In this document: positions 10,090-54,785 of the stretch, in pieces
How the letters are laid out: each line of letters opens with the position of its first letter
Position numbering within the stretch: the stretch's first letter is position 1
Source of the DNA: an uncultured Bifidobacteriaceae bacterium
Lineage (GTDB): Bacteria > Verrucomicrobiota > Verrucomicrobiia > Limisphaerales > UBA11358
Direction: 5' to 3'
NCBI GenBank assembly: GCA_964555775.1
Contig: CAZKTW010000002.1
Coordinates: forward strand, 1 to 54,785
DNA: 54,785 nucleotides
Program-made: the position numbers and the translations under genes
Notes under the pieces: model-generated
Told to the model about the DNA's origin: nothing
Databases searched by the model: none
What the model saw: only the letters and a program-made list of their open reading frames with translations

Positions 10090-11127
10090 ATGGCATCAAA
10101 GGTCAAAGTCGCCGTCCTCGGCACCGGCTCGCTGGGTCAGAATCATGTCCGCATTTACTCGGAACTCGCCGCCGCCGGCCAGGTGGAATTCACCGGCCTC
10201 TTTGACACCCACCCCGACACCGCCCGTAAAATCGCCACCAGGCACAATGCCCGCATTTTCAATTCCGTCGCCGAGGCCGTCACCGCCAGCGACGCGTTGA
10301 ACATCGTCACCCCCACCACCACGCATTTTGAACTTGCAAAAACATTGCTGGCGGCTGGCAAGCACGTCCTTGTCGAGAAGCCAATGACTGACGACACGGC
10401 CCAGGCCGCCGAACTTGTCCAACTGGCCAGGCGAATGAATTGTGTTTTGCAGGTCGGCCACGTCGAGCGGTTCAATCCCGTGTTCAAATATCTCGAATCA
10501 GTCGCCACCCAGCCGCGGTTCATCGAGTGCCACCGGCTCTCACCCTACCCCGCCCGCTCAACCGACATCGGCGTTGTGCTCGATTTGATGATCCATGACC
10601 TCGACGTCGTGCTCGCGTTCGTTAAATCACCGGTTGCCAGCATGGACGCCGTGGGGATTCCGGTTTTGAGCAAATCCGAGGACATCGCCAACGTGCGGCT
10701 GCGCTTCGCCAACGGCTGTGTCGCCAACCTCACCGCCAGCCGCATCAGCCCCGAACGGATGCGGAAAATACGCGTCTTCAGCGGCCCAACCAATCCCTGT
10801 TACATCTCGCTTCATTACGACGTGCAGGAAGGATTCATCTATCGCGTCGCCCGCGACGACGAACCGGAAAGTTCGTTGCTGAAAAAGGTTCTCGCCACCA
10901 AGCTCGGCCTCGGCAAAGACTCCGCCATCGTCAGCGAATTTGCCGGCAAGAAGATCGTGCGCGAGCCGGTGCCGATTGCGAAGGACGAACCGCTCAAGCT
11001 GGAGCTGCAACATTTCGTGAATTGTGTCCGCGAAAAACAGACGCCCATGGTCAGCGGCGAATCGGCCAAGCTGGCCCTGGACCTGGCCTTTGAAATCACC
11101 CGGCAGATTCAAAATCAAAAAACTTAA
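10090..11127 (+). CDS. Gfo/Idh/MocA-family NAD-dependent oxidoreductase (possibly GnnA-like)
   Basis: N-terminal Rossmann 'KVAVLGTGSLGQNH' and 'EKPMT' motif, followed by a C-terminal alpha/beta domain. Without the two inserted genes it would sit directly upstream of lpxB. Confidence 0.8.
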   Translation: MASKVKVAVLGTGSLGQNHVRIYSELAAAGQVEFTGLFDTHPDTARKIATRHNARIFNSVAEAVTASDALNIVTPTTTHFELAKTLLAAGKHVLVEKPMTDDTAQAAELVQLARRMNCVLQVGHVERFNPVFKYLESVATQPRFIECHRLSPYPARSTDIGVVLDLMIHDLDVVLAFVKSPVASMDAVGIPVLSKSEDIANVRLRFANGCVANLTASRISPERMRKIRVFSGPTNPCYISLHYDVQEGFIYRVARDDEPESSLLKKVLATKLGLGKDSAIVSEFAGKKIVREPVPIAKDEPLKLELQHFVNCVREKQTPMVSGESAKLALDLAFEITRQIQNQKT

Positions 11128-11150
11128 CGCAAAGGCGCGAAGACACAGAG
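11124..11150 (-). repeat. 'ctttgcgttaa'-type repeat (family E), inverted copy
   Basis: ttaacgcaaaggcgcgaagacacagag. It overlaps the oxidoreductase stop codon. Confidence 0.6.
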
Positions 11151-11153
11151 AAA

Positions 11154-11603
11154 ATGGACGCGTCAGATTACAAAGAGAAGTTGAGACAAGCTCGCGAAAG
11201 AAAGGGTTGGTCAATTCATGAGGCTGCAACACAAGTTGCAGAAAATTCCATTACGAGCAGAGCGAATTATTACGACATTGAACAATGTGAAGGCGATCTG
11301 ACGAGTTGCTGCTCTTTGAATGAGATTTCACGGATTAGCAAGTTGCTGAATGTTCATCCCCGCGATTTGTTTTGTGATGAAAAACCCGCTGTAATTTCCA
11401 TTTCGGATGTGGTTAAGAACATTCAAAAGCACGGTGTCGAAAAGAAGATTCCCATCAATGAATTTGAGGACATTGTTGGCTGGCGAGTCGAAGATTGTCT
11501 GACAAATCCCGCCAAAGTACTGAATGAATGGAATATTGATTGTTTGCTGGATGTCAGCCGTGAATTGAACATTGACTGGCGATGTGTAATTGCAGGCTTA
11601 TGA
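11154..11603 (+). CDS. XRE-like helix-turn-helix protein with an unassigned C-terminal half
   Basis: 'LRQARERKGWSIHEAATQV...SRISKLLNV' looks like an HTH_3-type motif. G+C is clearly lower (hand count 26/60 for nt 11281-11340). Inverted repeats flank the gene. Confidence 0.55.
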   Translation: MDASDYKEKLRQARERKGWSIHEAATQVAENSITSRANYYDIEQCEGDLTSCCSLNEISRISKLLNVHPRDLFCDEKPAVISISDVVKNIQKHGVEKKIPINEFEDIVGWRVEDCLTNPAKVLNEWNIDCLLDVSRELNIDWRCVIAGL

Positions 11604-11606
11604 ATT

Positions 11607-11640
11607 CCTCTGCGCCCTCTGCGTCTCTGCGTTAAAAAAA
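11607..11640 (+). repeat. Family E repeat
   Basis: cctctgcgccctctgcgtctctgcgttaaaaaaa, directly after the HTH ORF stop. Confidence 0.6.
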
Positions 11641-11696
11641 CTGTGACCCCAAAACCCTTCATACGCATCGCCGGTGAGACGAGCGGTGATTGCTCT

Positions 11697-11721
11697 GTAG
11701 GAGACGAGGTAACGAGTCTCT
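11697..11721 (+). repeat. REP family A copy (gtaggagacgaggtaacgagtctct), 5' of the RayT-like gene
   Basis: Matches the reverse complement of 12349-12373 at 22 of 25 positions (hand alignment). Confidence 0.8.
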
Positions 11722-11733
11722 AATTTCTCCGCC

Positions 11734-12381
11734 ATGAATTTTCAACGCCCCGTCAAACCGCCCCGCGACCAGCTCAACCGTGCCTTTTATTTGCCGCGCC
11801 CGCCGCGCAAGCATTATCAAGCCGACGCCGTGGTTTTTTGGACGCTTACCATTTTTGACAAAGCCCGGGGCTGGTTGACACCGGCTTTTCACCACTGCTT
11901 CCGGGAATTGATGTTCCACAGTGCGGCCCGTGAAGGGTTGCTTTGTCCAATCTACTGCCTCATGCCGGATCATCTGCATCTGATCTGGATGGGCTTGCGG
12001 CCAGACTCAGACCAATTTACCGGCATGGCGTTTCTGCGAACGTATCTTGAACCGGAACTCAAACCTGACAAATTCCAACCACAGGCACAGGACGAGGTGT
12101 TGCGTGAGGAACAAAGGAAACGGGACGCTTTTGCCAAAGTCTGCTTTTACATTGCCGCCAATCCAGTGCGGGCGGGTCTGACAGGCGAGAAAGAACTCTG
12201 GCCATTCACGGGCTGCGTGGTTCCCGGTTATCCAAGATTGAATCCGATGGAGGAGGATTTTTGGCCGACTTTCTGGCGAATCTATGGCAAACTGCGACAC
12301 ACAGATGCAGGAAACACAAAACGTCAGGCCATTGTTCCAAATGAAATCAGAGACTCCTCACGTCGTCTCCTACAGAACTAA
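11734..12381 (+). CDS. REP-associated tyrosine transposase-like protein (RayT / IS200-like HUH Y1 family)
   Basis: HUH motif 'MPDHLHLIW' and Tyr motif 'CFYIAANPVRAGL'. Inverted REP copies flank it at 11697-11721 and 12349-12373. Confidence 0.7.
   Translation: MNFQRPVKPPRDQLNRAFYLPRPPRKHYQADAVVFWTLTIFDKARGWLTPAFHHCFRELMFHSAAREGLLCPIYCLMPDHLHLIWMGLRPDSDQFTGMAFLRTYLEPELKPDKFQPQAQDEVLREEQRKRDAFAKVCFYIAANPVRAGLTGEKELWPFTGCVVPGYPRLNPMEEDFWPTFWRIYGKLRHTDAGNTKRQAIVPNEIRDSSRRLLQN
12349..12373 (-). repeat. REP family A copy, inverted, at the 3' end of the RayT-like gene
   Basis: agagactcctcacgtcgtctcctac. It encodes the last residues (..DSSRRLLQ) of ORF 11734..12381. Confidence 0.8.
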
Positions 12382-12384
12382 GGA

Positions 12385-13539
12385 ATGACTCCAAAAACCT
12401 TCATGCTCATTGCCGGTGAGGCAAGCGGCGATTTGCTCGCGGCGGAACTGGTGGTCGCCCTGCGCAGCCAGATGCCGGATGCGAAGTTCATCGGCGCCGG
12501 TGGACCAAAAATGAAGGCCGCCGGAACCCGCCTGGCGTTTGATCTGACCCAGCACTCGGTCATCGGAATTTCCGACGTGCTGAAGAATCTTTCCAAATAT
12601 CGCCGGCTGTTCAACCAATTGCTGGCACTGGCAATTGAACAAAAGCCGGATGCCGTCATCGGCGTTGACTATGGCGGATTCAACCTGCGTTTCGGCCATG
12701 CGATCAAGCGTTATGCGCGTAAACATCGATCGGCATCCACGCCGTGGAACCCAAAAATCATCCAGTTCGTTTCACCGCAGGTCTGGGCTTCGCGCCCGGG
12801 CCGGGCCAAACGGCTGGCCCGCGATTACGATCTGCTCCTGAGCATTTTCCCGTTTGAGAAGGACTGGTACGCCAAGCGCGTGCCCCAATTGCGCGTCGAA
12901 TTCGTCGGACATCCGATGGTGGAACGTTTTGGTTCGGAAGAGCGGGTGCCACCAGCCCCCATTCCCCAAAAAAGAATTCTCCTGCTGCCGGGCAGTCGGG
13001 AAACCGAACTGCGACGCCATTTGCCGGTGATGCTCGACGTGATCAGATTGGTCCGGGAAAAACTGCCGGAGTTACAGGTTAAAATGGTTTTGCCCAATAA
13101 CGGCTTGAAACAACTTGCCGACCAGCTGGGCGCGCCTCAGTCCCGGGTGGAAATCCAGACGGGCAACCTGCCACAGGCACTCACGCAGGCGGACGTGGCC
13201 ATCGCGTCCACGGGCACGGTGACAATGGAATGCGCGTTCTTCGGCGTGCCAACCGTGACGCTCTACAAAACATCGTGGCTCACCTACCAGATCGCCAAAC
13301 GCATCGTCACGGTGAAGTCACTGACGATGCCGAACCTCCTGGCGAACGAGGAGATCTTCCCCGAATTCGTCCAGGGCGCCGCCACGCCCGGGAACATCGC
13401 CGGAGCGGCGTTGGACCTGCTGCAAAACGAACCGCGCCGTGCCCAAATCAAAATATGGCTCAAGGCGATTGTCTCGACCCTGGGCGAAACCGGCGCCAGC
13501 GAGCGCGCGGCAACGGCCATTTTGAGCTTGTTCCCATGA
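12385..13539 (+). CDS. lpxB: Lipid-A-disaccharide synthase
   Basis: 'FMLIAGEASGDLLAAEL', 'GAGGPKM', 'DYGGFNLR', 'QFVSPQVWASRPGR', 'LLPGSRETE' and 'ASTGTVTMECAFFGVP'. Confidence 0.95.
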   Translation: MTPKTFMLIAGEASGDLLAAELVVALRSQMPDAKFIGAGGPKMKAAGTRLAFDLTQHSVIGISDVLKNLSKYRRLFNQLLALAIEQKPDAVIGVDYGGFNLRFGHAIKRYARKHRSASTPWNPKIIQFVSPQVWASRPGRAKRLARDYDLLLSIFPFEKDWYAKRVPQLRVEFVGHPMVERFGSEERVPPAPIPQKRILLLPGSRETELRRHLPVMLDVIRLVREKLPELQVKMVLPNNGLKQLADQLGAPQSRVEIQTGNLPQALTQADVAIASTGTVTMECAFFGVPTVTLYKTSWLTYQIAKRIVTVKSLTMPNLLANEEIFPEFVQGAATPGNIAGAALDLLQNEPRRAQIKIWLKAIVSTLGETGASERAATAILSLFP

Positions 13540-40198: not shown

Positions 40199-40966
40199 TC
40201 ATGCCGGGCCGGAGGCCGGCGTTCCGGCGGGAATCAACAACTGGTTAAATCCATCCCGAAACCGGTTGCTGCTGAAAGGCCAATCCTTGTCCACCCGGCA
40301 CAATCGCGCCTTCACCGGATTATTATCAATGTAACGGACGGCCTTTTGTTCCTGTGCCGCATCGCGCATGAATGTATCCCAATATTCCCGCTGCCATTGG
40401 AACGCCGAGCACCGTCTCGGCGTGTTGGAATCTGATTGTTTTTCGCGCCGAGGCGGCGCTCGGCGCTCCAATAAACGCCAGCTCCTGAATTCTGTCACCA
40501 CGTGAATTTTCCAGTTCTGGAGTATCTTCCATAGCGGTATCTGCCACACGTGCGCAAGCACATGGACGTGATTGGGCATCACGCACCAGGCAAGCAATTC
40601 TTAACGTTGACTGGGAAAATGCAGCAAGGCGTCTTCCACGAGCCGGGCAATGCGCGGGTCACGCAAATGACACTCGCCGTGGCCACGATCGAGATATTCC
40701 TCCAGTTTCGTGCGTTTCTCCCGCTCATCCTCAATTCGTAACAAATGTTCCCATTCACCACGGCGCGAATTCGGCATGGAATCCGCAAGTCGAAATGTGA
40801 CGAATTGAATGAGACCAGGATAATCGCAGTGCGGCAGATAACCCCGTTCGTGCCAGCCGAGGAAACCTAAAGCCTTCTCTTCATCCGTCAGCGGACGAAA
40901 CGCCGTGTTCTTCCCTTCGACAAGCTGACGAAGATATTCGCGCTTGGTCCGCGGTGGAACGGGCAT
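40199..40966 (-). pseudogene. RayT/IS200-like HUH Y1 transposase gene interrupted by an in-frame TAA (40601-40603) and carrying an internal REP hairpin
   Basis: ORFs 40601..41023 and 40199..40597 are in the same frame: '...LLHFPSQR * E (L)LAWCVMPNHVHVL...YIDNNPVKARL'. The HUH and Tyr motifs are both downstream of the stop. Confidence 0.7.
40399..40469. repeat. REP family B hairpin located inside the RayT-like pseudogene
   Basis: The arms are ggaacgccgagcaccgtctcggcg and cgccgaggcggcgctcggcgctcc. They are near-perfect 24-nt inverted repeats with a 24-nt spacer. Confidence 0.85.
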
Positions 40967-41009
40967 GGCCAGACATCTACCAAATTCCGGACATGGAAGA
41001 CAATCCCTT

Positions 41010-41076
41010 GGAGCGCCGAGCACCGCCTCGGCTTGTTTCGATTATAGCATCGAGCCGAGGTGGTGCTCGGCGCTCC
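41010..41076. repeat. REP family B hairpin between the RayT-like gene start and the acnA stop (possible acnA terminator)
   Basis: The arms ggagcgccgagcaccgcctcggc and gccgaggtggtgctcggcgctcc are complementary at 22/23 positions. Confidence 0.85.
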
Positions 41077-41079
41077 GGC

Positions 41080-43794
<2,715 letters not shown>

Positions 43795-43914: not shown

Positions 43915-44048
43915 TACGTCGGTTTCAAGCATTTGCGGGACCAGACGCCGCACCCCGCCATCTGAGCAACACGGTCCGGGGACATATCCCGAGACATTCC
44001 ACGTTGCTTTGTCTCGACAGCCGGAGAAATTCACGGTAGCTTTTTTTT

Positions 44049-44140
44049 GCCAGGGCCCATGGAATGTGGACTTACGAACCCCGCCAGGGCCGGAAGGCAG
44101 CAACGGTAGTTTGCTCCGTATCTGCCGTGGTCACCCTGGC
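44049..44140 (+). ncRNA. ffs: Signal recognition particle RNA (small/4.5S type)
   Basis: Domain IV core 'CCGCCAGGGCC-GGAA-GGCAGCAACGG' (44081-44106) has a GGAA tetraloop and flanking AGG / AGCA loop residues. A 7-bp closing helix pairs GCCAGGG (44049-55) with CCCTGGC (44134-40). The whole folds as one long hairpin directly upstream of dnaX. Confidence 0.75.
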
Positions 44141-44147
44141 ATTCTGA

Positions 44148-44175
44148 ATTTACGATTTGCGATTTCGAATTCACG
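44148..44175 (-). repeat. Heptamer array (atttacg-type, the reverse complement of cgtaaat) x4
   Basis: atttacg atttgcg atttcga attcacg, followed by the perfect palindrome gattgcccgggcaatc (44175-90). Confidence 0.9.
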
Positions 44176-44200
44176 ATTGCCCGGGCAATCAACAACGACG

Positions 44201-44228
44201 CGTAAATCGTAAATCACAAATCAAAAAT
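44201..44228 (+). repeat. Heptamer array (cgtaaat-type) x4 running into the dnaX ATG
   Basis: cgtaaat cgtaaat cacaaat caaaaat. The last unit overlaps ATG 44227. Confidence 0.9.
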
Positions 44229-45978
44229 GTCATATCAGGTCATTGCCAGAAAATATCGTCCGCAGCGGTTTGCGGACGTGGTCGGCCAGGAACATGTCAC
44301 GCAGACGCTGGCCAATGCCATCGGGCAAAAGCGCATTGCCCACGCCTACCTGTTCTGCGGCCCGCGCGGCACCGGCAAGACGACCATCGCCCGCATCTTT
44401 GCCAAATGCCTTAATTGCACCGGCGGCCCCAAAATCGATTTTGACGACTCGGACCCGCGCTGCATTGAAATTGCCGAGGGCCGGTCGCTGGACGTGCTGG
44501 AAATTGACGGGGCCAGCAACAACGGCGTCGAACAGGTCCGTGAACTTCGCGAGACCTGCAAATACGCGCCCGCTCATTCACCGTTCAAGGTTTACATCAT
44601 CGACGAGGTGCACATGCTCTCGACGGCGGCGTTCAACGCGCTGCTGAAAACCCTGGAAGAGCCGCCGGCGCACGTGAAGTTCATGTTCGCCACGACCGAC
44701 CCGGAGAAGGTCCTGCCCACGATCCTGTCGCGTTGCCAGCGGTTCGATCTGCGCCGGATTCCCAGCGCGCTCATCGTCAAACACCTCGCCCAAATCGCAA
44801 AACTGGAGAAGGTCAAAATCGACGACCCGGCACTTCTGGCCATCGCCCGGGGCGCCGATGGCGGGATGCGCGACGCCGAATCCACGCTCGACCAGCTCAT
44901 CAGTTTCTGCGGCGAGAAGATTGAGGAGGCTGACGTGCTGTCCATGTTTGGCCTGGCCGCCCAAAGCCAGGTGCTCGGTTTGAGCCGGGCCGTGCTTGCC
45001 GGCGAAATCCAGACCGCGCTCGGTCTTCTGAACGAACTGGCGCAAAACGGCAAGGACCTCGGGCGGTTGCTTTCGGATCTGCTCAACCATTTTCGCAACC
45101 TGCTCATTTTCCAGGTTTCGCGCGGCGACCTGAACCTGCTCGAAGTGTCCGAAATCGAGGTCGCGGCGCTCAAGGAACAATCCCCGCTGACCAACACCGG
45201 ATCGCTGACCCGGATCCTGGAGGCACTCACCGATGCCGAGCTTCGCCTCCGCGACACCGCCTCAAAAAAAATCCTGGTTGAAGTCACCATGCTCAAGGCC
45301 ATCGAAGCCGGCAATGCAGTGAGCCTCGACTCGGTCTTGAAGCAACTTAACCAATTGCGCGGCGGCCAAAGCAGCGCCGGTATCGCCCCGGCGGAACGCC
45401 AGGCACCGGCCCGGCCAGCAATGGAAAAAACAAAAATCGTTCACCGGCTCGCCGAACCGGCGCCCGGCGTCGCAACCCCTTTAACTGAAACTCCACCCGT
45501 CTCCGGTGACTTGAGCGAGTTGTGGACCAGACTCATCGAGGCCGTCGGCCGCGTGAGCCAGTTCACCCGGACCTACCTGCTGGACGCGCATCCGGTTTCA
45601 TTTGCCCAGGGAATCCTGACCATCGGCTTCGACCCTGAATTTGAGGATCATCTCGGCCTGGTGGACAACGCGCGCAATCACACCCTGCTGCAAACCAAGC
45701 TGGCCGAACTGGGACACGCGAACACCCAGATCAAATTCATCAAGGCCGAGGCGCCGGTTGGAGCGACCGCCAAACCCGCGGCGCCCGCGGCGGCCCCGGC
45801 AACCAGTTCCCCGCCGGCGATTGCACCCGCTGCGGCTAAACCCGCCGCGGCGGCCACTGCATCCGGAAAGGAAAAAACCTCGCCGGTGGCTTTCAACAAG
45901 AACGATTTCAAGAACGACCCGTTGATTCAAAAGGCCCTGGAAATCTTCCGCGGCCAGATCATCGAAGTTCGCGCGTGA
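44227..45978 (+). CDS. dnaX: DNA polymerase III subunit gamma/tau
   Basis: 'MSYQVIARKYRPQRFADVVGQEHV', 'GPRGTGKTT', 'KVYIIDEVHMLS', 'FNALLKTLEEPP.HVKF' and 'SRCQRF'. Confidence 0.97.
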   Translation: MSYQVIARKYRPQRFADVVGQEHVTQTLANAIGQKRIAHAYLFCGPRGTGKTTIARIFAKCLNCTGGPKIDFDDSDPRCIEIAEGRSLDVLEIDGASNNGVEQVRELRETCKYAPAHSPFKVYIIDEVHMLSTAAFNALLKTLEEPPAHVKFMFATTDPEKVLPTILSRCQRFDLRRIPSALIVKHLAQIAKLEKVKIDDPALLAIARGADGGMRDAESTLDQLISFCGEKIEEADVLSMFGLAAQSQVLGLSRAVLAGEIQTALGLLNELAQNGKDLGRLLSDLLNHFRNLLIFQVSRGDLNLLEVSEIEVAALKEQSPLTNTGSLTRILEALTDAELRLRDTASKKILVEVTMLKAIEAGNAVSLDSVLKQLNQLRGGQSSAGIAPAERQAPARPAMEKTKIVHRLAEPAPGVATPLTETPPVSGDLSELWTRLIEAVGRVSQFTRTYLLDAHPVSFAQGILTIGFDPEFEDHLGLVDNARNHTLLQTKLAELGHANTQIKFIKAEAPVGATAKPAAPAAAPATSSPPAIAPAAAKPAAAATASGKEKTSPVAFNKNDFKNDPLIQKALEIFRGQIIEVRA

Positions 45979-46003
45979 GTTTTGGGCCACTCCATCAGCC
46001 AGA

Positions 46004-46029
46004 GGCAGGGCGCGTCACTCCGTGCTCGC
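46004..46029 (+). repeat. Left 26-nt inverted repeat bounding the dnaX/ybaB insertion
   Basis: ggcagggcgcgtcactccgtgctcgc matches the reverse complement of 49914-49939 at 24 of 26 positions. Confidence 0.8.
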
Positions 46030-46037
46030 CGTTTTGT

Positions 46038-46108
46038 GCAGGAGACGAGGTGACGAGACTCAAATTTCTTTTTTTTAAGCAAGACGGAGACTCCACGTCG
46101 TCTCCTAC
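46038..46108. repeat. Inverted pair of REP family A copies separated by a T-rich 24-nt spacer
   Basis: gcaggagacgaggtgacgagactc (46038-61) and ggagactccacgtcgtctcctac (46086-108), 60 nt after the dnaX stop. Confidence 0.8.
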
Positions 46109-46212
46109 TTTGTTAACGGCTGCTAGCCGGCTTGAGTTGCGCCGGATGCGGCTGCCCTCGACGACGCCCCGGCCCGTCGCTTTCAACGCGGGATCATTAT
46201 GCCCGGCTATCG

Positions 46213-47241
46213 TCACGGCTTCGGGCGCTTGAGTTTTTTTGGTTTCGGCAACTGTTGCAACTGTTTCGCGACCTGCTCAAAATCGGCATCCACTGGACGC
46301 GGCTGGGCATCGGCTAACGCTTGGTAACGCTCGTATTCCCTTTCCGCCTTGGCCCGGGCGGTTTCGGAGGAAATCTTCCCGGCGTGATGCAACAACTCGC
46401 GCCCGGATATTTTCAAGAATTCGTCCAGCTTTTCAATCCAGTTGCGCATCGTCATCGGCTTGCGGTCGAGGGCCTGAAGTTCGGCGAACTCGATGTAGAG
46501 GTTCACGATCCGGTTCAGCGTTTGCAGTTCCGCTTCGTTGAGATAGTTCTTGGCCACCGAAACATCCTCCCGGCGGATGATTCGACCGGGGCGTGTGGTC
46601 GCCAGCCCCATCAACGGCTGCGCCGCGTCGGCGCGCTGGTGGATGACCTCCGCCGCCGTGTGTCCATGCGTCGCCCAATGCATCTTGTTCTGCACCGTGG
46701 CGAAGAACTGTTGTGACGCCTCCTCGCGCGGATCGTAATCAACGCTCGTCGCGTAAATATCCAGCACCTTCTGGTAGAAACGCCGTTCCGAGGAGCGGAT
46801 GTCCCGGATGCGCTGCAACAACTCATCAAAATAATCCTTCTGCCCCTTGCCGGGCGGATTTTTTAATCGCTCGTCGTCCATTGTAAATCCCTTGACGATA
46901 TATTCGCGCAATCGCTGCGTGGCCCACTGGCGGAACTGCGTGCCCCGGTGCGATTTCACCCGGTAACCGACCGCAATGATGACATCGAGATTATAGTGCT
47001 GCGTGTCGTAGGTTTTACCATCGGCGGCAGTTATCCGGAATTTCCGGATAACTGAATCGGGCACCAGCTCACCTTCCTCAAAGATGTTTTGAATATGTTC
47101 GTTGACCGTGCGAACATCCTTCTGAAAAAGCTCGGCCATCAGCTTTTGTGTGAGCCAGACGGTTTCATTTTCGAGTCGGACTTCAATCCGCGTCCGGTTG
47201 TCCTCGGTCTGGTAAAGAATCAATTCTGACTTCGGTTTCAT
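46213..47241 (-). CDS. rhuM: RhuM-family protein (virulence/DNA-binding-like)
   Basis: 'ILYQTEDNRTRIEVRLENETVWLTQ..MAELF....TVNEHI.NIF.EGEL' and 'YNLDVIIAVGYRV.S..GTQFRQWAT..L.EY..KGF' match my recollection of the RhuM family. Confidence 0.7.
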   Translation of the reverse strand: MKPKSELILYQTEDNRTRIEVRLENETVWLTQKLMAELFQKDVRTVNEHIQNIFEEGELVPDSVIRKFRITAADGKTYDTQHYNLDVIIAVGYRVKSHRGTQFRQWATQRLREYIVKGFTMDDERLKNPPGKGQKDYFDELLQRIRDIRSSERRFYQKVLDIYATSVDYDPREEASQQFFATVQNKMHWATHGHTAAEVIHQRADAAQPLMGLATTRPGRIIRREDVSVAKNYLNEAELQTLNRIVNLYIEFAELQALDRKPMTMRNWIEKLDEFLKISGRELLHHAGKISSETARAKAEREYERYQALADAQPRPVDADFEQVAKQLQQLPKPKKLKRPKP

Positions 47242-47296
47242 GTGCTCAATTATACTTCACCCGGTGCGACAAAGGCTGTCCAAGCTTCATTGTGGT

Positions 47297-49573
47297 TTAC
47301 TGGTCGACATCGTCGAATACTGAACGTGAATCATCACCGCCTCCGCTGTGAGATCCGCCACGGTAATCATCAGAATCAGGTTCTTGCGGTTGCCCTCGCC
47401 TCAAGTCCTCCACAAGCTCTTCAATTTCTACCAATGCGGAATCAATTTTTGAAACGGCCTTTGAATCCTGCGCAAGTTCGCTTTTATAATCCTTCAGGGC
47501 ATCAACAAGCGATTCAAAGTGACTTTCGGGGTCTCTTTCGTTGTCCCAATTATGCTGCCAGTGAGAAATCTCGTCGTCTATATTTGGAATTAACTTCGTT
47601 CTCACGTCTTCCATGATTTGGGTGAATTCTTCCGGCTTAATCATTTTCCGAATGCCTTCAGTGAGAAACCCGGAATCTGGCGTCTCGACTGCCAATCCTC
47701 GAATGATAGAAACAACAGATGCTCTTGTGACTTCATGGAGAATACCAAATTCATGAAGTCTTACGAAGACATCAACGTCAGACACAGCAGTCAGATAAGA
47801 GCCGACACTTAATGACGAAATAAATTGAGTATTTCGCTCGATATAGCGCGACAGAAACTTTTGGTCGCACCGAAATGCAAGAAACGAGTGCAATGACCTT
47901 TGATTGTCTGACGTTGAAGTGTCAAATTTTTCAAGTCGGGTAATCAGCGTGTCGTAACGGTCTTGCGGAACAATAACTTTTACACCTTGAATGCCAACAT
48001 CGCCACATGAGACTTCCCCAAACAACTTTGCAATTGGAGTTCCAGCAAGATAGATGTCCAGCAATTCACGGTCTTCTGCCACTACTGTTGCAAAGGCATC
48101 TCGGATCGTCGGATGTTTGAAGCGCCACAAGTAAGCACCTGCTTGTAGTAACTGAAGAATGAGGCTGCCATCCAGTGCATTGAGCGCATTGCGCACATCT
48201 GAAAGCGAGCCGCCGAGTAGTGTAATCGCTCGCTCTTCGTCGGGAGACATTTTTACTGGGCTGGCGAGCGACCCACCGCGCATGAATACCAATGCCAAAG
48301 CAGAACGGCTTCCGGCATCGAGGGTCTGAATAATTTCACAAAGTAATTCAAGCGGACGCTCCACGAAATCATCTAAATCGTCTTTAGCGATTACCAAGTG
48401 CTTTGTGAATAATGGATTGCCAAGCCGCCTCGCTATTTCGGGGCTAAAGCGAGGATGGGCCGAGACATTTGGTAGATAAGATTTTATTTGGGTCTTGAAT
48501 CGCCTCGGCTGACCTCCTAGGCGGACATGATTGTAGAGAATCTGTTCGCGCTCTTCCTTCGTGAGTTGTTCAACATGAATCACGACTTGCGATTCACGAA
48601 TGACAGGAAGTGCCGATTCTTTCAAGTGCTGTTTCGCTGAACGATAGATATAGTCGCGTGAAGTGAAAAGCACTCTTGCACCACGACGAATGGCAGCATG
48701 TATATGTGGAAATGTTTGATTCCAACTTGCCACGCTTGACCAATCAAATTGAGTCGCTCCAAAAGCATCATTCACCCAAAAGAATTGCTTTGGCTCATGC
48801 GGGTTTGATCGCGCAACGAACTCACTTGCGTCACGGATTTTGAGTGTCGAGCATCTCCATTCATCCAATGCACCTACGGCTAAAGCAGCAGCGATTGTTG
48901 ATTTGCCACAGGCTGGCTCGCCCAAAAGCAGCACAAATCCATGTTCTACCAATGCCTTCGCACTACGCTGGTAGGCATCTGTAATGACAAATTTCGACAA
49001 ATCATCGCCGAGTGCGCTCAATATCTCGCGTGCTTGGTCATAACCCCGCTCATCCAGAATTTGACCAAGATCACCCAGGCCATAAACACGAGGAACTAAC
49101 ATTCGCAGTCGGGATGAGTCGCGAATGAAATGGGAAATCCGGTCACCACCATATGCTGCAAACTTTTTGATGCCGGCAATCTCAAGAAATGCATTCTGGA
49201 TGGTTTCCTCATTCGTTCCGGTAAGGCGCGCATTAGTGAAAAGAAAGTAGTTGTCGGAGAGACCACGAGCAGCGAGGCGCTTTGCTTTATCGAGTTCGTC
49301 AGTCAAGTCAGCAAGCTGTATTTGCTTGTCTGCTTTTGCTGTGAATTTGCATTGTGCTGTGAATGACCCCTCGAACACTTCACCTGATTTTGATTTCCAT
49401 GTTCCTTGAAATGCGCCGTCCCTTCCTCCATCGTGTGAATCAAAGAAACTCTGAACGGTCTGCCCCCACACTTCGCCCACAATTGTGACACACAGAGTTT
49501 GAAATGCTTTCCAGCCGAGTGTATGGAGTTCGCATGTAATCTCGGACGCCTGGACTTTGCTTGGGGCATTCAT
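47297..49573 (-). CDS. Mrr-like PD-(D/E)xK nuclease + P-loop NTPase + long helical C-terminal domain protein (candidate defence protein)
   Basis: 'HDGGRDG' (nt 49435-49415) and 'AQCK' (49357-49346) give the Mrr_cat-type core. Walker A is 'GEPACGKST' (48922-48896) and Walker B-like is 'FFWVNDAF' (48784-48761). G+C is low. The start is ATG 49573; the ORF is open to 49633. Confidence 0.65.
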   Translation of the reverse strand: MNAPSKVQASEITCELHTLGWKAFQTLCVTIVGEVWGQTVQSFFDSHDGGRDGAFQGTWKSKSGEVFEGSFTAQCKFTAKADKQIQLADLTDELDKAKRLAARGLSDNYFLFTNARLTGTNEETIQNAFLEIAGIKKFAAYGGDRISHFIRDSSRLRMLVPRVYGLGDLGQILDERGYDQAREILSALGDDLSKFVITDAYQRSAKALVEHGFVLLLGEPACGKSTIAAALAVGALDEWRCSTLKIRDASEFVARSNPHEPKQFFWVNDAFGATQFDWSSVASWNQTFPHIHAAIRRGARVLFTSRDYIYRSAKQHLKESALPVIRESQVVIHVEQLTKEEREQILYNHVRLGGQPRRFKTQIKSYLPNVSAHPRFSPEIARRLGNPLFTKHLVIAKDDLDDFVERPLELLCEIIQTLDAGSRSALALVFMRGGSLASPVKMSPDEERAITLLGGSLSDVRNALNALDGSLILQLLQAGAYLWRFKHPTIRDAFATVVAEDRELLDIYLAGTPIAKLFGEVSCGDVGIQGVKVIVPQDRYDTLITRLEKFDTSTSDNQRSLHSFLAFRCDQKFLSRYIERNTQFISSLSVGSYLTAVSDVDVFVRLHEFGILHEVTRASVVSIIRGLAVETPDSGFLTEGIRKMIKPEEFTQIMEDVRTKLIPNIDDEISHWQHNWDNERDPESHFESLVDALKDYKSELAQDSKAVSKIDSALVEIEELVEDLRRGQPQEPDSDDYRGGSHSGGGDDSRSVFDDVDQ

Positions 49574-49629
49574 CACGGAAGAAGACTTCTTAAGTCGAGC
49601 CGCGGGCTCGACGCTACAATCCCCGTCTC

Positions 49630-49749
49630 CCAAGCATGGCGCGCCTCATCTTCCTGGCAAGCAGGGGAAAGATGAAATTTCTCGTCGGTCCAAAAATCCG
49701 CCACAAGCTGTTTCACCCGCCCAAAGGTTGCCTCGAAGGTCGTCAACAT
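49630..49749 (-). pseudogene. Remnant resembling the N-terminus of a type I/IIG restriction-modification enzyme (HsdR_N-like leader)
   Basis: 'MLTTFEATFGRVKQLVADFWTDEKFHLSPACQEDEARHAW' resembles the '..LV..F......Y.S..Y.E.E.R.(D/E)FI' N-termini of Eco57I-like/type I enzymes. The similarity ends at about 49630, next to a perfect palindrome (49594-49612). Confidence 0.35.
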
Positions 49750-49835
49750 GAGTTTGGAGTGTGCGCCGGAGCGGCGGCGGCGGCAATAAATTAGTTGCTG
49801 GTTGATGAGGGCCGGGAAAAGCAGCAATTGAAAAT

Positions 49836-49872
49836 TTGCGCCTTTGCATATCCGCGTCTTTGCGTTAAAAAC
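49836..49872 (+). repeat. Family E repeat near the right edge of the dnaX/ybaB insertion
   Basis: ttgcgcctttgcatatccgcgtctttgcgttaaaaac. Confidence 0.6.
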
Positions 49873-49913
49873 ATTTTTGCGTTTTCCGTGCGTTTTTCAA
49901 TCGGTTCTGAGCG

Positions 49914-49939
49914 GCGCGCACGGAGTGACGCGCCCTACC
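49914..49939 (-). repeat. Right 26-nt inverted repeat bounding the dnaX/ybaB insertion
   Basis: gcgcgcacggagtgacgcgccctacc. Confidence 0.8.
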
Positions 49940-49997
49940 ATCAAACAATTTGGCAATATCGGATTGGAATTTTTACATGCTCATGTAATCTGCCGGC

Positions 49998-50309
49998 ATG
50001 TCGAGCATTGGAAAACTGATGAAACAGGCTGCGCGAATGCAGCAACAAATGGAACAGGTGCAAACCCAACTGGCGGCGCGCACCGTGGAGGCCACCAGCG
50101 GCGGCGGCGCGGTCAAGGTCATTGCCAAATGCGATGGCAGCATCGCCTCCATCAAGATTGATCCCCAGGCGCTCAATCCCGCCGATGCGCAGTTGCTGGA
50201 GGACATGATTGTGACCGCCGCAAATCAGGCTCTCGGCCAGGCCAAGGACATTTCCAATACGGAAATGGGGAAAATCACCTCCGGATTGAGCCTGCCGGGG
50301 ATGGGATGA
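49998..50309 (+). CDS. ybaB: YbaB/EbfC-family nucleoid-associated protein
   Basis: 'LMKQAARMQQQMEQVQ..L....VEATSGGGAVKV...DG.I.SIKIDP', 103 aa. Confidence 0.95.
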   Translation: MSSIGKLMKQAARMQQQMEQVQTQLAARTVEATSGGGAVKVIAKCDGSIASIKIDPQALNPADAQLLEDMIVTAANQALGQAKDISNTEMGKITSGLSLPGMG

Positions 50310-50315
50310 AATAAA

Positions 50316-50375
50316 TCGTCCTCGGCCTCCTCCTCGCACTCGTAATCGAGAAACCGAGGACGAGGACGAGGACGA
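50316..50375 (+). promoter_or_regulatory. Long imperfect hairpin built from (cgagga) x4 repeats between ybaB and recR
   Basis: The left arm 50316-36 pairs with 50355-75 at 19/21. The 18-nt loop holds the mini-hairpin ctcg-taat-cgag. The recR SD-like gaggagga (50374-81) abuts the 3' arm. Confidence 0.5.
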
Positions 50376-50384
50376 GGAGGACTG

Positions 50385-50981
50385 ATGTTACCCGATTCCA
50401 TCACCGAGTTGATTTCCGCCCTGGCCCGGCTACCCGGCGTCGGGCCGCGTTCCGCCGAACGCATGGCCCTGCATCTTGTCCAGGCCGAGTCGGTGGCGGT
50501 GAAGCAACTGGCGGACGCGATGGTTCATGCCCGGGAGAAAATCCAGTTTTGCACCACCTGCGGTGCACTGACTGAAAAATCCCCGTGCTCCATCTGCACC
50601 GATGACCGGCGCGATGCCGCGCTGGTGTGCGTGGTGGAACGGGCGGTGGACATTTTGAGCGTGGAAAAATCCGGCACCTATCGCGGCAAATTTCATGTGC
50701 TCGGGGGAAAAATTTCGCCTCTCGACGGGGTTGAGCCGGACGATCTGCGGATTGCCGGATTGGAAAAGCGCCTGACCCGGGAGCCGATCAAGGAGGTGGT
50801 CATCGCCCTGGGCATGGACGTGGAGGGAGACGCGACAAGTTATTATCTGGCCAAACGGCTGGCGCGCCCGGGGCTGAAAATTTCCCGCATTGCCTACGGT
50901 TTGCCAGCCGGCAGCGGACTGGAATTTGCGGACGAACTGACGTTGAGCCGGGCACTGGAAGGACGAAGGGAGATGAACTGA
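50385..50981 (+). CDS. recR: Recombination protein RecR
   Basis: 'LISALARLPGVGPRSAERMALHL' (HhH), the C4 zinc finger 'CTTCGALTE..PCSIC', and a Toprim region ('VVE...D'). Confidence 0.97.
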   Translation: MLPDSITELISALARLPGVGPRSAERMALHLVQAESVAVKQLADAMVHAREKIQFCTTCGALTEKSPCSICTDDRRDAALVCVVERAVDILSVEKSGTYRGKFHVLGGKISPLDGVEPDDLRIAGLEKRLTREPIKEVVIALGMDVEGDATSYYLAKRLARPGLKISRIAYGLPAGSGLEFADELTLSRALEGRREMN

Positions 50982-51272
50982 TTTTCGATGGCCAAAATCG
51001 GAACAAACTTGGGTGGGGCGGGCAGTTCCCTGCCCCGCTCGTTCAAACGCAAACAACGGCGCGCACGGAGTAGGCGCGTTGCCCAACCGTTTGGCGCGGA
51101 TCGCGGCTGTCCCAGCCGCAGCATGTTCGACCATGCAAAACTTTCCGGCATTTCGTGTGCTCATTTAGCAATGCTGGCTGCTGCGGGTGGGACACCCGCG
51201 GTCCGGTCCTTTGGGCAACACGCCCGAGTAACGCGCCTGGCAATTTCGAGCCGGCTTGGATGATATGAATCC

Positions 51273-51875
51273 ATGAATTCTCCCGTTGTTGTCTTTGACC
51301 TGGGCAAAGTGTTGGTGGATTTCGACTATTCGATTGCCGCCCGCCGGATTGCCGCCCAAAGCCAAAAACCGCTGGCTGAAATCAAGGTGCTGATCGAGCA
51401 ATCCCGATTCATCATTGATTACGAGACCGGACGGGTGACGCGCCAGGAATTCTATGAGCGGGTGCGGGAAGCGACCGGCTTTGGCGGAACCCTTGGCGAG
51501 TTCAGCGGTTTTTTCGCGGACATTTTTTCTGAAATTCCGCTGATGATCGAATTGCACGCCAGCCTGCGCCGTCGCGGCATGCCGACCTGGATTTTTTCGA
51601 ACACCAACGACCTCGCGGTTGAGCATATCCGGAAGAATTTCCCCTTTTTCCAGAATTTTGACGGTTATATTCTATCCTACGAAGTGGGGGCCATGAAGCC
51701 GGACGCCAAAATTTATGAAGCGCTGGAAAAAATCACCGGACGCCACGGGACGGACATTTTATATCTGGACGACCGGGCCGAAAACGTAGCGGGAGGCGCG
51801 GCGCGAAGCTGGCGGACGATTCTGCATGAAACTCCGGAAAAAACGCTCGCGGCGGTGGAAAAGCTTCAGTTGTAG
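51273..51875 (+). CDS. HAD-superfamily hydrolase (subfamily IA-like)
   Basis: Motif I 'VVVFDLGKVLVD', motif II 'IFSNTN', 'MKPD', and motif IV 'LYLDDRAENV'. Confidence 0.8.
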   Translation: MNSPVVVFDLGKVLVDFDYSIAARRIAAQSQKPLAEIKVLIEQSRFIIDYETGRVTRQEFYERVREATGFGGTLGEFSGFFADIFSEIPLMIELHASLRRRGMPTWIFSNTNDLAVEHIRKNFPFFQNFDGYILSYEVGAMKPDAKIYEALEKITGRHGTDILYLDDRAENVAGGAARSWRTILHETPEKTLAAVEKLQL

Positions 51876-51922
51876 AGTCGGTGTCGAGCGCCGATACTTC
51901 AAGTCACACACTTGCACGACCG

Positions 51923-52204
51923 TTAATTCAAACGCGGCTTGATGGGTTTAACCGGTTTGAGGCCGACCTCGTGGGCGATGTCGTCGAATTCCTCGTGGCT
52001 GACGGTTTCGAGTTTTTTGCCGCGCGCCTTGAGCTTTTCGTTGATCTTGATGGCTTTCTCGGTCATCTGCTCATGCGTGCCTTCCGTTCCGCCAATCAAC
52101 GCAAAATTCGGCCCGGTAGTGAGACGTTTGTGACCGTCCGAATCCAATCCGACGCCCAGCATTAGTGCTTTGCGTTTCTTCTTTTGGGAGCCGTCTGACA
52201 TCAA
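51923..52204 (-). CDS. Small conserved-looking hypothetical protein
   Basis: 93-aa ORF with a basic N-terminus ('SQKKKRKALMLGVGLDSDGHKRLTTG'). It shows ordinary codon usage and fits the gap cleanly. Confidence 0.45.
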   Translation of the reverse strand: MMSDGSQKKKRKALMLGVGLDSDGHKRLTTGPNFALIGGTEGTHEQMTEKAIKINEKLKARGKKLETVSHEEFDDIAHEVGLKPVKPIKPRLN

Positions 52205-52259
52205 TTCAGCCTAGATGCGAATGCCGTTGTGGTCAAGGACGTGGCAGCCCAATAACCAT

Positions 52260-52994
52260 CTAATCATTCGCGCCGCGGATGGGTACGGTCAGCGGACGGC
52301 CATTGTCCGAAGGGCCGAGTTTCAACAGGAACGGCACGGCGGCTTTCGCCCATTCGAGCGGCGACGGGTAGCCTGACGCCGAACCGCCAAAGCAACTGCG
52401 CAGCATGTCGGTATTGATGATGCCGGGATTGAGCGGCACGGCGGCCATGCCCGGTGGCAATTCCTGCGCCAGGGCCTGCGTAAGCCCTTCAATCGCCCAC
52501 TTGGTGGCGCAATAGGGCGCAACTTCCGCCGCCGTCGAACGGCCCCAGCCGGAACTGAAATTGACGATGACCCCGGTGCCGCGGGCGACCATCGCCGGCA
52601 CAAAATGGTGGATGACATTTGCCGAGCCCTTGAGATTTACGTCCACCACGTCGGAAAACTCTTTCGCACTGATCTGCCAGAGCGGCGCGTTGCGGTTGAT
52701 GCGCCCGGCATTGTTGAGCAGCAAATCAGGCGCTCCGCGGGTTTCCAAAATGCCTTTCGCCCAGGCGGCAACCTGCTTATCAGTGGAAACATCAACGGTG
52801 GCAAAGTGGCTTGGCGGCGGAAATTGTTTCTGCAAATGCGCGATCTCCGTTTCCGAACGTCCGCAGCCGACAACGGTATGCCCAAGGCGGATGAATTCAC
52901 CGGCCATGGCGCATCCCAGCCCGCGCGTTGCGCCGGTGATCAAAATCATCTTTCCAGTGCCTTTCACACTTTTGTCTGGCTTCTCGCCTGCCAT
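52260..52994 (-). CDS. Short-chain dehydrogenase/reductase (SDR)
   Basis: 'ILITGATRGLG' (TGxxxGxG), 'LLNNAG' and 'YCATKWAIEG' (YxxxK). Confidence 0.9.
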   Translation of the reverse strand: MAGEKPDKSVKGTGKMILITGATRGLGCAMAGEFIRLGHTVVGCGRSETEIAHLQKQFPPPSHFATVDVSTDKQVAAWAKGILETRGAPDLLLNNAGRINRNAPLWQISAKEFSDVVDVNLKGSANVIHHFVPAMVARGTGVIVNFSSGWGRSTAAEVAPYCATKWAIEGLTQALAQELPPGMAAVPLNPGIINTDMLRSCFGGSASGYPSPLEWAKAAVPFLLKLGPSDNGRPLTVPIRGAND

Positions 52995-53062
52995 CGCCGG
53001 GCGTGGCAAGTCGGACGGCTCGCACTAAAGCGCTCGCAGACAGGCGAGACGCCTATCCTACT

Positions 53063-54022
53063 TTAAGTTCGCGGATCGAATTTGGATTCGCGTTTGAGTT
53101 GCTCCCATATTTTTTTCTCTGCGTCTGATATTTTTGCCGGCACAACAATTTTGGTGACGACCAGCAAATCGCCCGTCGGCGGCAGGCCGCGTCCGCGCAC
53201 ACGGAGTTTCTGGCCGCTCTGCGTTCCGGCAGGAATTTTGATGTTCACGCGGCCGGTGAGCGTCGGCACGGAAATTTCCGCACCGAGCACGGCTTCCCAC
53301 GGCGCGAGTTCGGCCTCGTAAAGCAGATGGTGATCTTCAACTTCAAAGTCGGGATGTTTTGCCAGGCGGACGCGAAGATATAAATCGCCTGCCGCACCGC
53401 CGCCGGAACCGTGCTCGCCGCGTCCGGTAATCCGCAACCGCTGGCCTTCAGCGACGCCCGCGGGGATTTTGACCTGGTGCGTTTCGGTGCGCGAGCCGTG
53501 TTGCACGCTGACGGAACGAACCGAGCCGCGCGCGGCCTCTTCGAGCGTAACCATGATGTCGCCCTCCACGTCGCGTCCGCGGGCGGCGAATTCCTCCTCG
53601 GAAAAACCGGGTGAACGGCCAAAGCCGCCCGCACCGCCACGCATCCGTGATCCGAACAACTGTTCGAAGAAATCGCTGAAGCCCGTGCCGCCAAAGTGGG
53701 TTTCAAAATCCACACCGCCGGTCCCGCGGCCGCGGGAATTTTGTCCGCCGGCGAAGTCTTCCCAACCGGACGGCGGACGAAAGTCGGCGCCCGACTTCCA
53801 GTTGGCGCCGAGCTCATCATATTTCTTGCGCTTCGCCGAATCGCCCAGAACCTCGTAAGCCTCGTTGATTTCCTTGAATTTTTCCTCGGCCTTCTTTTTG
53901 TCTTTGGCGACGTCAGGATGATATTGCCGCGCGAGTTTGCGGAAGGATTTTTTGATTTCCTCGTCACTCGCCGTACGGGGCACGCCAAGGATTTCGTAGT
54001 AATCTTTGTATTGAACAGGCAT
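53063..54022 (-). CDS. cbpA: DnaJ-class co-chaperone without a zinc finger (CbpA type)
   Basis: J domain '[24 protein letters not shown]', a G/F-rich linker, and C-terminal substrate domains. No CxxCxGxG repeats. Confidence 0.85.
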
Positions 54023-54135
54023 AGATGCCGCCCTGGTTCAGGCAGCGTTCCGCAAGAATGTGCCCACCGCAGGGGTTTTGTCAAAATTTTGCGGATTGGG
54101 GGATGTGACTCAATTTGCCGTGGTAGGGAAGCCAT

Positions 54136-54171
54136 GCGATGTCCCTGCCGCAGACAAGGACAGTGTCCAAG
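54136..54171 (-). repeat. Dispersed repeat family D, inverted copy
   Basis: gcgatgtccctgccgcagacaaggacagtgtccaag. Confidence 0.75.
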
Positions 54172-54333
54172 TGCGCCCCGTTCCAACCTCATTCCGGCGT
54201 GAAGTTGCCGTTTTTTTCACGTTGACCGGCGAATGTTACGAGCCCGGGGTTTTGTCACCGGATTGTAACAATCCCGCCGCATGTTCGTAACGCTGCCGTT
54301 TCAATCTTACATCGAAATCTGAACCCATAAACC

Positions 54334-54785
54334 ATGAAAAAGCTAAGAAAGCATAAAACTTCCCCAAAAATAGTGCTGTTTGCCGGCGCAACGACGTTGA
54401 TGGCTCTCACGCCGCAAATCCAGGCGCAAACGTCCGTGGACGCGTTGCTCAACAAACTGGAGCAAAAGGGCATCCTCACGGTGGATGAAGCAAAGGAATT
54501 GAAGGCTGAAAACCAGCAGGATTCCGCCGCCGACCTGAACAAGGCCATGAACTCCAAATTCCAGATGCCGGACTGGGTGACAAGTTACAAATTATATGGC
54601 GACTTTCGCGGACGGTTTGACGACGAACTCACGGACAGCCCCGGCAACACCGCGACGGGATTGGGCGGTCAGGACCGCATCCGTCTGCGCTACCGTTTGC
54701 GAGTGGGTTTGAACGTCAACCTGAAGGACGACCTGCAGGTGGGCTTTCGGCTGGGCTCGGGCGATTCCGGCGGCAATGCCTTGTC
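54334..54785 (+). CDS. Putative outer-membrane porin (3' end outside window)
   Basis: ATG 54334 opens with the signal 'MKKLRKHKTSPKIVLFAGATTLMALTPQIQAQ', then a coiled 'LLNKLEQKGILT..EA.ELK' lead-in and beta-strand-like 'YKLYGDFRGRFD' and 'IRLRYRLRVGLNV'. The frame is open to the window end. Confidence 0.6.
   Translation, partial: MKKLRKHKTSPKIVLFAGATTLMALTPQIQAQTSVDALLNKLEQKGILTVDEAKELKAENQQDSAADLNKAMNSKFQMPDWVTSYKLYGDFRGRFDDELTDSPGNTATGLGGQDRIRLRYRLRVGLNVNLKDDLQVGFRLGSGDSGGNAL

Follow-up and report, generated by a model that had tools for sequence, protein, structure and literature searches.

In Pseudomonas aeruginosa the core defence hot spots cDHS1 and cDHS2 (median 26 kb) are without the hallmarks of mobile genetic elements, and homologous recombination in the flanks is the proposed way in which their content spreads (PMC10250203). 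Repetitive extragenic palindromes (REPs) of the GTAG type consist of a GTAG head followed by a G+C-rich hairpin, according to the family descriptions drawn on here (PMC3733652), and REPs accumulate over time in the non-coding DNA of their host (PMC3390384). RhuM has been proposed as a toxin embedded in restriction-modification (R-M) loci, accompanying R-M and PrrC-like systems (PMC3710099), and nSTAND3 is the NTPase domain of Avs5 (bioRxiv 10.1101/2025.07.08.663546). Here we describe an interval of 4,019 nt (45979-49997) in a stretch of 54,785 nt from a soil bacterium of the order Limisphaerales (contig CAZKTW010000002.1; the whole stretch is called the window below), where two minus-strand genes, rhuM and a gene of the nSTAND3 family, lie between the housekeeping genes dnaX and ybaB, with one copy of an inverted repeat, R1, near each end. 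We consider it probable that this interval is a small mosaic defence islet in a dnaX-ybaB hot spot, and that the R1 pair consists of separate copies of a generic REP.

Related loci were fetched from species-representative genomes using the RecR protein as anchor. This resulted in 80 loci, all from Verrucomicrobiia or Limisphaerales-type metagenome-assembled genomes (MAGs) with a RecR identity of 79-88%, and the spacer comparison covers the 74 loci having both dnaX and ybaB. The spacer is 6-54 nt long (median 38.5) in 64 of them and 486-1044 nt in the remaining 10. Nine of the long spacers carry one clear open reading frame (ORF) each and one (locus L044) is without a clear gene; when the nine ORFs were compared, mutual similarity was undetectable, and one of the inserts encodes a HAD hydrolase, the others being without a family match. 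All but one of the ten inserts are 8-22 GC points lower than the rest of their own locus. Neither rhuM nor the nSTAND3 gene is found at this junction in any of the 74 loci, and the 4.0-kb filling of the window is the largest seen there.

The content between these conserved core genes is thus variable, with 64 sites empty, 10 filled differently and the window's filling differing again. The insertion at the window's junction is real. As most sites are empty and the others hold unrelated, mostly low-GC fillings, the dnaX-ybaB junction is a hot spot at which foreign single genes have entered again and again in the order Limisphaerales. A first-pass annotation of the window, made from its sequence alone, had suggested horizontally acquired DNA at a recombination hot spot and had proposed to look in related MAGs for empty or differently filled sites. 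Both kinds were found, and the suggestion is supported by this survey, by the foreign composition of the nSTAND3 gene and by the homologues of that gene in other phyla.

The mean GC content of the interval is 0.505, compared with 0.574 in the whole window. In the earlier annotation this had been described as one lower-GC cassette of 3.9 kb on the basis of hand counts, which are exact (22/60 at 47701-47760, 30/60 at 46981-47040, and 38/60 in ybaB at 50041-50100), but the lowering is not uniform. The background has a mean GC content at third codon positions (GC3) of 0.68 (standard deviation, sd, 0.07) and a mean codon score of 0.155 (sd 0.077). GC and codon-usage statistics, also proposed at that stage as a check, mark the nSTAND3 gene as foreign (GC 0.475, GC3 0.434, codon score -0.137; about 3.5 sd below background), whereas rhuM is host-like (GC 0.552, GC3 0.705, codon score 0.144). 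The atypical composition looked for in an island was found in the nSTAND3 module and in the nine low-GC inserts of the relatives, not in rhuM.

The relatives of the two genes differ as well. A transferable rhuM module, 46226-47283, is 92.7% identical in DNA to copies in the metagenomic loci L211-L215, and the identity is confined to that span; the proteins are 95% identical, and the copies stand at a locus other than dnaX-ybaB. The nSTAND3 gene has homologues at 63-87% identity in sequences whose source names are Acidobacteriota, Planctomycetota, Proteobacteria and Verrucomicrobia, the closest being in a MAG named Bryobacteraceae (L210; 87% protein and 81.7% DNA identity). Since composition and relatives both differ, rhuM and nSTAND3 are not one unit. 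Each is a single-gene module acquired independently of the other, so that the cargo is a mosaic, and the single cassette of the first proposal is replaced by two modules. Table 1 collects the features of the locus.

Table 1. Features of the dnaX-ybaB interval and its flanks, with positions in the window
Feature	Position	Strand	Evidence and remarks
ffs (small signal recognition particle RNA)	44048-44144	+	Rfam RF00169 Bacteria_small_SRP, 71.7 bits, E 4.8e-14; upstream anchor of the conserved cluster
dnaX	44227-45978	+	Pfam DNA_pol3_delta2, DNA_pol3_gamma3, DNAX_ATPase_lid; syntenic in 74 related loci; left core-gene flank
R1, left copy	46004-46031	+	Repeat search, copy alignment; diverged (head GCAG, not GTAG; one stem mismatch)
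REP-A doublet, REPIN-like	46037-46108		Just inside left R1 copy; same family flanks the RAYT gene at 11734-12381
rhuM (RhuM family)	46213-47241	-	Pfam PF13310, E 2.9e-115; PADLOC candidate PDC-S05, E 1e-145, full-length match
nSTAND3 gene	47297-49573 from ATG (49633 if from upstream TTG)	-	Pfam PF20720, E 3e-40; PADLOC candidate PDC-S73, E 1.5e-26
Hairpin, 8-bp stem and 3-nt loop, GTCGAGCC-GCG-GGCTCGAC	49594-49612		Sequence; 20 nt upstream of the nSTAND3 ATG
Conserved upstream piece (gene remnant or leader)	49651-49764	-	tblastx E 2.4e-5; blastn 79.7% over 59 nt against the region upstream of the L210 homologue
Family-E repeat copy (TTAACGCAAAGACGC...)	49854-49868	-	Repeat search
R1, right copy	49912-49939	-	Repeat search, copy alignment; identical to consensus GGTAGGGCGCGTCACTCCGTGCGCGCCG
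ybaB	49998-50309	+	Pfam YbaB_DNA_bd, E 5.9e-30; right core-gene flank
recR	50385-50981	+	Pfam RecR domains; protein used as anchor for the 80 related loci

The end of dnaX, the start of ybaB and the presence of opposite-strand genes between them were all confirmed as annotated before. Likewise, the family, PADLOC, tRNA and RAYT-remnant searches of 45979-49997 (RAYT, REP-associated tyrosine transposase) found no integrase, transposase or tRNA gene inside the interval and no remnant of a RAYT gene, in agreement with the earlier statement that integrase and transposase are absent, though two RAYT transposase genes lie elsewhere in the window. As ybaB and recR are now parted from dnaX by two opposite-strand genes, they must have their own promoter.

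Compared with cDHS1 and cDHS2, the dnaX-ybaB site is alike in that its content varies between fixed core genes with a non-coding RNA gene nearby, and in that the inserts are atypical in composition and come without obvious mobile-element machinery. It differs in being much smaller (0.5-4 kb, 1-2 genes), in having been compared across the species of an order and not among strains of one species, in that the fillings in relatives are mostly small genes without a recognised defence family, and in that the insertions split an operon-like housekeeping cluster. The islet is a small instance of a known pattern, defence genes at core-flanked hot spots without mobility genes (PMC10250203), and the finding alone brings no new mechanism. 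It means that dnaX-ybaB, usually held to be part of a fixed housekeeping cluster, carries an insertion in about one in seven species of a poorly studied soil order, and that one of these species holds two candidate anti-phage genes there without mobility genes. The two core genes form a simple anchor pair for mining new defence candidates in Limisphaerales metagenomes.

The first-pass annotation had described a pair of 26-nt inverted repeats, identical at 24 of 26 positions, as bounding the island. The pair is real and slightly longer than that, 28 nt with 26 of 28 positions identical. The 55-kb window has no further R1 copy, and 100 shuffles yielded no match. Aligned copies from elsewhere yielded a sharply bounded 28-mer consensus, GGTAGGGCGCGTCACTCCGTGCGCGCCG. 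The copy counts given here come from metagenome contigs and related MAGs, not from the source genome.

The exact 18-nt core of R1 is present in at least 120 metagenome contigs, and 135 copies have 129 distinct outer flanks. A head GGTA(G) is found in 115 of 136 copies (85%) and the right copy in the window has GGTAG; the head GGCAG of the left copy is a variant seen in 10 of 136, and its tail variant is seen in none of the 136 other copies. Consensus R1 folds at -10.3 kcal/mol (z = -3.0), the left copy at -6.5 kcal/mol (z = -1.2) and a doublet at -47 kcal/mol. About 70% of the copies are part of head-to-head doublets, in which the partner is either R1 or a sister family, R2 (GGTAGGGCGGGCAGTCCTCTGCCCGCCG). 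Among 80 close R1/R2 doublets, 74 are head-to-head, with gaps of 1-61 nt (median 19), and five are tail-to-tail. One metagenome contig (L154) carries a RAYT ORF at 816-1283 (NF047646, 84.8 bits against a cut-off of 80) flanked by R1(+) at 675-702 and R1(-) at 1330-1357. In three related MAGs (L010, L029 and L044) R1 copies stand at unrelated positions, none of them at the dnaX-ybaB junction.

R1 thus shows all the marks by which a REP is recognised: a stem-loop palindrome, a GTAG head, dispersed copies, inverted doublets and a cognate RAYT flanked by copies. It is a REP of the generic, dispersed kind that a RAYT transposase mobilises, and does not form the ends of a mobile element. That the 26-mer might prove to be an abundant dispersed REP had been named beforehand as the outcome that would speak against the repeats bounding an island, and this is what the metagenome contigs gave. 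Caution is called for in REP-rich genomes, where copies of a host REP in inverted orientation can be mistaken for transposon ends.

Set beside the described GTAG REPs, REP doublets forming hairpins (REPINs) and RAYTs (Nunvar 2010; Bertels & Rainey 2011, PMC3116915; Di Nocera 2013, PMC3733652, for the sections considered), R1 is alike in its length of 28 nt, GTAG head, hairpin and extragenic dispersal, and also in its head-to-head dimers with short spacers, its heterodimers with a sister family and the RAYT between inverted copies. It is unlike them in that R1 is not among the GTAG families named in those sections of PMC3733652, which do describe GTAG-17 and GTAG-19 in Opitutus terrae (R1 was set beside these two by description, not by sequence), and in that two copies here bracket 3.9 kb of acquired genes. 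Directly after dnaX, the left copy and the TTTTG following it match a simple intrinsic-terminator pattern (a consensus match only), and the copy probably now serves as terminator of dnaX.

On the reading that we favour, foreign single genes would accrete in the dnaX-ybaB spacer, the rhuM and nSTAND3 modules having arrived independently. The islet is without a recombinase; we infer that entry and spread would go by recombination anchored in the conserved core-gene flanks or by illegitimate recombination, and the terminator role of the left REP and the defence mechanism outlined below are put forward in the same manner. The R1 copies, the REP-A doublet and the family-E copy would have settled in the two intergenic regions newly created by insertion. 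These two regions are mosaics of host repeats, which fits the accumulation of REPs in non-coding DNA (PMC3390384), and the flanking position of R1 is probably mostly coincidence. Independent colonisation is also what 13 widely spaced R1/R2 pairs point to, as they look randomly oriented (5 ++, 4 --, 3 -+ and 1 +-), the lone +- pair being the islet's own.

Several points weigh against this account. The only two R1 copies in 55 kb are found one in each intergenic region of the islet, where they are the outermost element beside the core gene, and they face each other exactly like doublet partners, which is more orderly than two random landings predict; this argument is tempered by the R1 pair having been singled out after the fact among several repeat families. 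The abundance of R1 is known from metagenomes and relatives. PDC-S05 and PDC-S73 are PADLOC candidates only, so that the anti-phage role of rhuM and the nSTAND3 gene is a predicted one. Furthermore, a close relative with an empty or intermediate site was sought: a search of 5.8 billion proteins gave no RecR between 89% and 100% identity, and nothing closer than 89% was found except L001 and L002, the only other contigs of the same species, which carry the identical islet with no differences across it. The sequences found hold no empty or intermediate allele of the source species, and the order of events given here is a proposed one.

The orderly placement would follow if foreign DNA, in one or several steps, had entered an R1 head-to-head doublet already present in the dnaX-ybaB spacer, its hairpin or cruciform being a fragile site or target, so that the halves are now 3.9 kb apart. 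The islet pair shares the head-to-head geometry, with GTAG ends outside, of the 74 close doublets, and each copy is indeed outermost beside its core gene. Dimers are reported to be under-counted partly through insertion of DNA between the partners (Di Nocera et al., PMC3733652) and REPs are documented as targets of insertion sequence (IS) elements (PMC1525189, PMC11208160). We nevertheless hold a split doublet to be unlikely: none of the 74 related loci has a REP in the dnaX-ybaB spacer, among the 12 other R1/R2 pairs with wide spacing there is no head-to-head one, and nine of the ten other insertions at the junction lack flanking inverted repeats (only L067 has a pair). In addition, the two copies differ at 2 of 28 positions, the tail variant of the left one recurs in no other copy, and at least two separate modules went into the islet. 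The broader idea that REPINs in these Verrucomicrobia are landing pads for foreign genes, or RAYT-mobilisable brackets around them, and that the R1 pair is no coincidence, is decidedly unlikely; if it were true, the islet would be a REPIN with a spacer enlarged by defence cargo from about 20 nt to 3.9 kb.

It is very improbable that the whole unit, from R1 to R1 with its contents, is an element mobilised in trans by an R1-specific RAYT. Its geometry is like that of the R1-RAYT-R1 unit in L154 and of a REP-A-RAYT-REP-A unit at 11694-12376 of the window, and the islet has no other mobility gene. Against this, RAYT units are single-copy and vertically inherited, and we know of no REP pair that carries kilobases of cargo. 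The unit was found at this locus only, in three near-identical contigs; no R1 was found near the rhuM and nSTAND3 homologues elsewhere; the modules are of different origin; and, as noted, the islet holds no RAYT remnant. Beside 46004 and 49939 no target-site duplication is visible by eye, and a scan of the interval gave only chance-level pairs, no dedicated search for short duplications having been made. Seen as terminal inverted repeats of a transposon, the R1 copies are not element-specific and enclose no transposase. That both genes stood at the junction in a common ancestor and were later deleted in the relatives is scarcely credible. Its sole support is that all three contigs of the species carry the islet, whereas it needs at least 64 independent deletions, each cleanly restoring a spacer of about 40 nt, the nSTAND3 gene is foreign in composition, its homologues in other phyla reach 63-87% identity when RecR identity does not exceed 89% even inside the order, and rhuM is at another locus in other genomes. 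The mosaic islet with separate REP copies is thus preferred.

The product of the nSTAND3 gene has 758 amino acids (aa) and shows, from the N- to the C-terminus, an Mrr-type motif, a central nSTAND3 NTPase (PF20720, residues 215-371) and a helical region. Its Walker A motif, GEPACGKST, does not vary among the homologues, and neither do D52, Q74, C75 and K76 of the N-terminal motif DGGRDG...QCK across 36 homologues. We take this motif to be the Mrr-type PD-(D/E)xK signature; the PADLOC REase match of the protein is weak (E 0.0024). The family is large and well conserved, with proteins of about 760 aa and more than 3,000 matches. In the contexts examined the homologues are single genes with type I R-M, PemK or TIR genes as neighbours.

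An AlphaFold model based on the 36 homologues has a mean pLDDT of 75.5, with an alpha/beta N-terminal domain and a helical C-terminus. No solved structure matched the protein by sequence search. A fold search with the whole chain gave as best matches Avs4 in complex with a phage portal (8dgf, E 3.9e-6) and the AVAST5 filament (9nc9, E 2.1e-4); Apaf-1 and NLR proteins came next. TM-scores are low (0.18-0.20), which is to be expected when multi-domain proteins adopt different conformations.

The window protein is like Avs4 and Avs5 in its predicted tripartite layout, with an nSTAND3 NTPase as in Avs5 and a predicted fold closest to Avs4 and AVAST5, and its N-terminus has a D...QxK Mrr-type motif, as would suit the Mrr-like nuclease effector of Avs4. 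It is shorter than Avs4, its effector is not the SIR2 domain of Avs5, and PADLOC files it only as candidate PDC-S73. We regard the gene as foreign and Avs-like. By analogy with Avs proteins, the C-terminal helical region would sense a phage protein, the NTPase would then oligomerise, and the N-terminal Mrr-type nuclease domain would cut DNA, aborting the infection. The two genes of the islet are candidate anti-phage genes only, as suggested by their family matches (PDC-S05, PDC-S73) and the modelled similarity to Avs4 and Avs5.

Upstream of the nSTAND3 gene, the stretch 49574-49830 is non-coding or a remnant. About 110 nt of it (49651-49764) are common to the window and L210, and the gene remnant of the first annotation therefore belongs to the nSTAND3 module. 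The conserved piece exists, though it may be a leader instead. A search of 49636-49830 against Pfam and NCBIfam, with the E-value limit raised to 10, gave no credible match and one chance-level NCBIfam match (E 0.16). The piece may resemble the N-termini of type IIG methyltransferases. The sequence at 49594-49612, described before as a perfect palindrome, is real, with the stem and loop given in Table 1. It could be an operator or attenuator, and it is absent from the corresponding upstream region of L210 in the alignment.

Close copies of the window's rhuM are also found in defence-type neighbourhoods, as described for RhuM-like genes (PMC3710099); unlike these, the window's rhuM adjoins a STAND NTPase gene and is not within an R-M operon. 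Elsewhere, the copies share a variable region with AAA_15/DUF4276, Fic, HNH and integrase genes. The AAA_15 and DUF4276 genes are presumably PARIS-like, going by domain content. The source of rhuM, whose product is proposed to be a toxin or an accessory of defence, is probably another locus in one or more GC-similar genomes of the same broad clade. In the loci of nSTAND3 homologues examined, rhuM is never the neighbour, and hence there is no evidence of the two genes working together. In L211 (8098-11029), and in L212 and L213 around 10001-11029, rhuM copies stand at the edge of the variable region beside an HMG-CoA reductase or UvrD gene, and this region looks like a second defence hot spot of the clade.

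The window is rich in REPs, with at least four other short repeat families besides R1 and two RAYT genes. The REP-A doublet and the family-E repeat reported earlier in the interior of the islet are both real, at the positions of Table 1. Family E was also considered as a REPIN-type element and dropped, having 10 copies in 2 Mb, a loose definition and no dimers.

An ORF at 11734-12381 is a divergent RAYT, with NF047646 at E 3.4e-12 (below the cut-off) and flanking inverted REP-A copies at 11697-11720 and 12350-12373. In the PDB it matches TnpArep (4er8) alone, and the HUH and YxxNPV motifs of the two align. About 45 nt on the left of the REP-A-RAYT-REP-A unit (11650-11695) resemble the 5' end of lpxB (12393-12440), a likeness that may represent a duplicated target. 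Between a Gfo/Idh/MocA oxidoreductase gene and the RAYT and lpxB genes there is a low-GC ORF with a helix-turn-helix domain (11154-11603; GC 0.42, GC3 0.43). The stretch holding it (11124-11635) is bracketed by inverted family-E copies, at 11124 on the plus and 11621 on the minus strand, and it looks like a second small foreign insert of the window that has a host repeat on either side. The other RAYT-like ORF (40199-40597, minus strand) matches NF047646 at E 5e-18 over model positions 50-146 only. A REP doublet (40394-40471) apparently interrupts it, and a further doublet of this family (GGAGCGCCGAGCACCGCCTCGGC) stands next to it at 41005-41076.

Some further observations concern the cluster in the relatives. 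In most of them (L003-L082, e.g. L003 9566-9607), the spacer, about 40 nt long, is made up of 3-4 heptamer-like units in tandem, immediately before the ybaB ATG. The heptamers are CTCAACC/CTCAACT or variants such as CCAGACC and ATTCAAC, similar runs are found in the window at 1362-1393 and 2904-2935, and they may be a lineage-specific translation or transcription signal. The inverted pair in L067, of 36 nt, flanks a single low-GC gene (9095-9639) and belongs to a different, low-complexity dispersed repeat (…ACACGGAT/GGACACGGAT…), a motif that also adjoins many R1 copies in metagenome contigs. In L056 (7930-10001) ybaB and recR are about 1.7 kb apart, so that here the neighbouring junction of the cluster has an insertion. 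Upstream of recR, neither dnaX nor ybaB was detected in L040 and L073.

Two features of the sister contigs were considered and set aside. The breaks of the Logan contig L002 at 46141 and 49937 might be repeat-induced assembly breaks; this is a hint only, and no conclusion was drawn because a 28-nt REP is shorter than the usual k-mer. The pattern of single-nucleotide differences between the window and L001, taken as a possible footprint of recombination, was uninformative, both contigs being essentially the same strain. The window and L001 differ only in three short patches, and none of the differences lies from 45980 to 54785. One patch is an Ala/Pro-rich linker near the 3' end of dnaX (45708-45912), which is hypervariable, with 71 differences including insertions and deletions (583 aa against 581 aa), and the other two are at 42988-43096 and 44164-44274.

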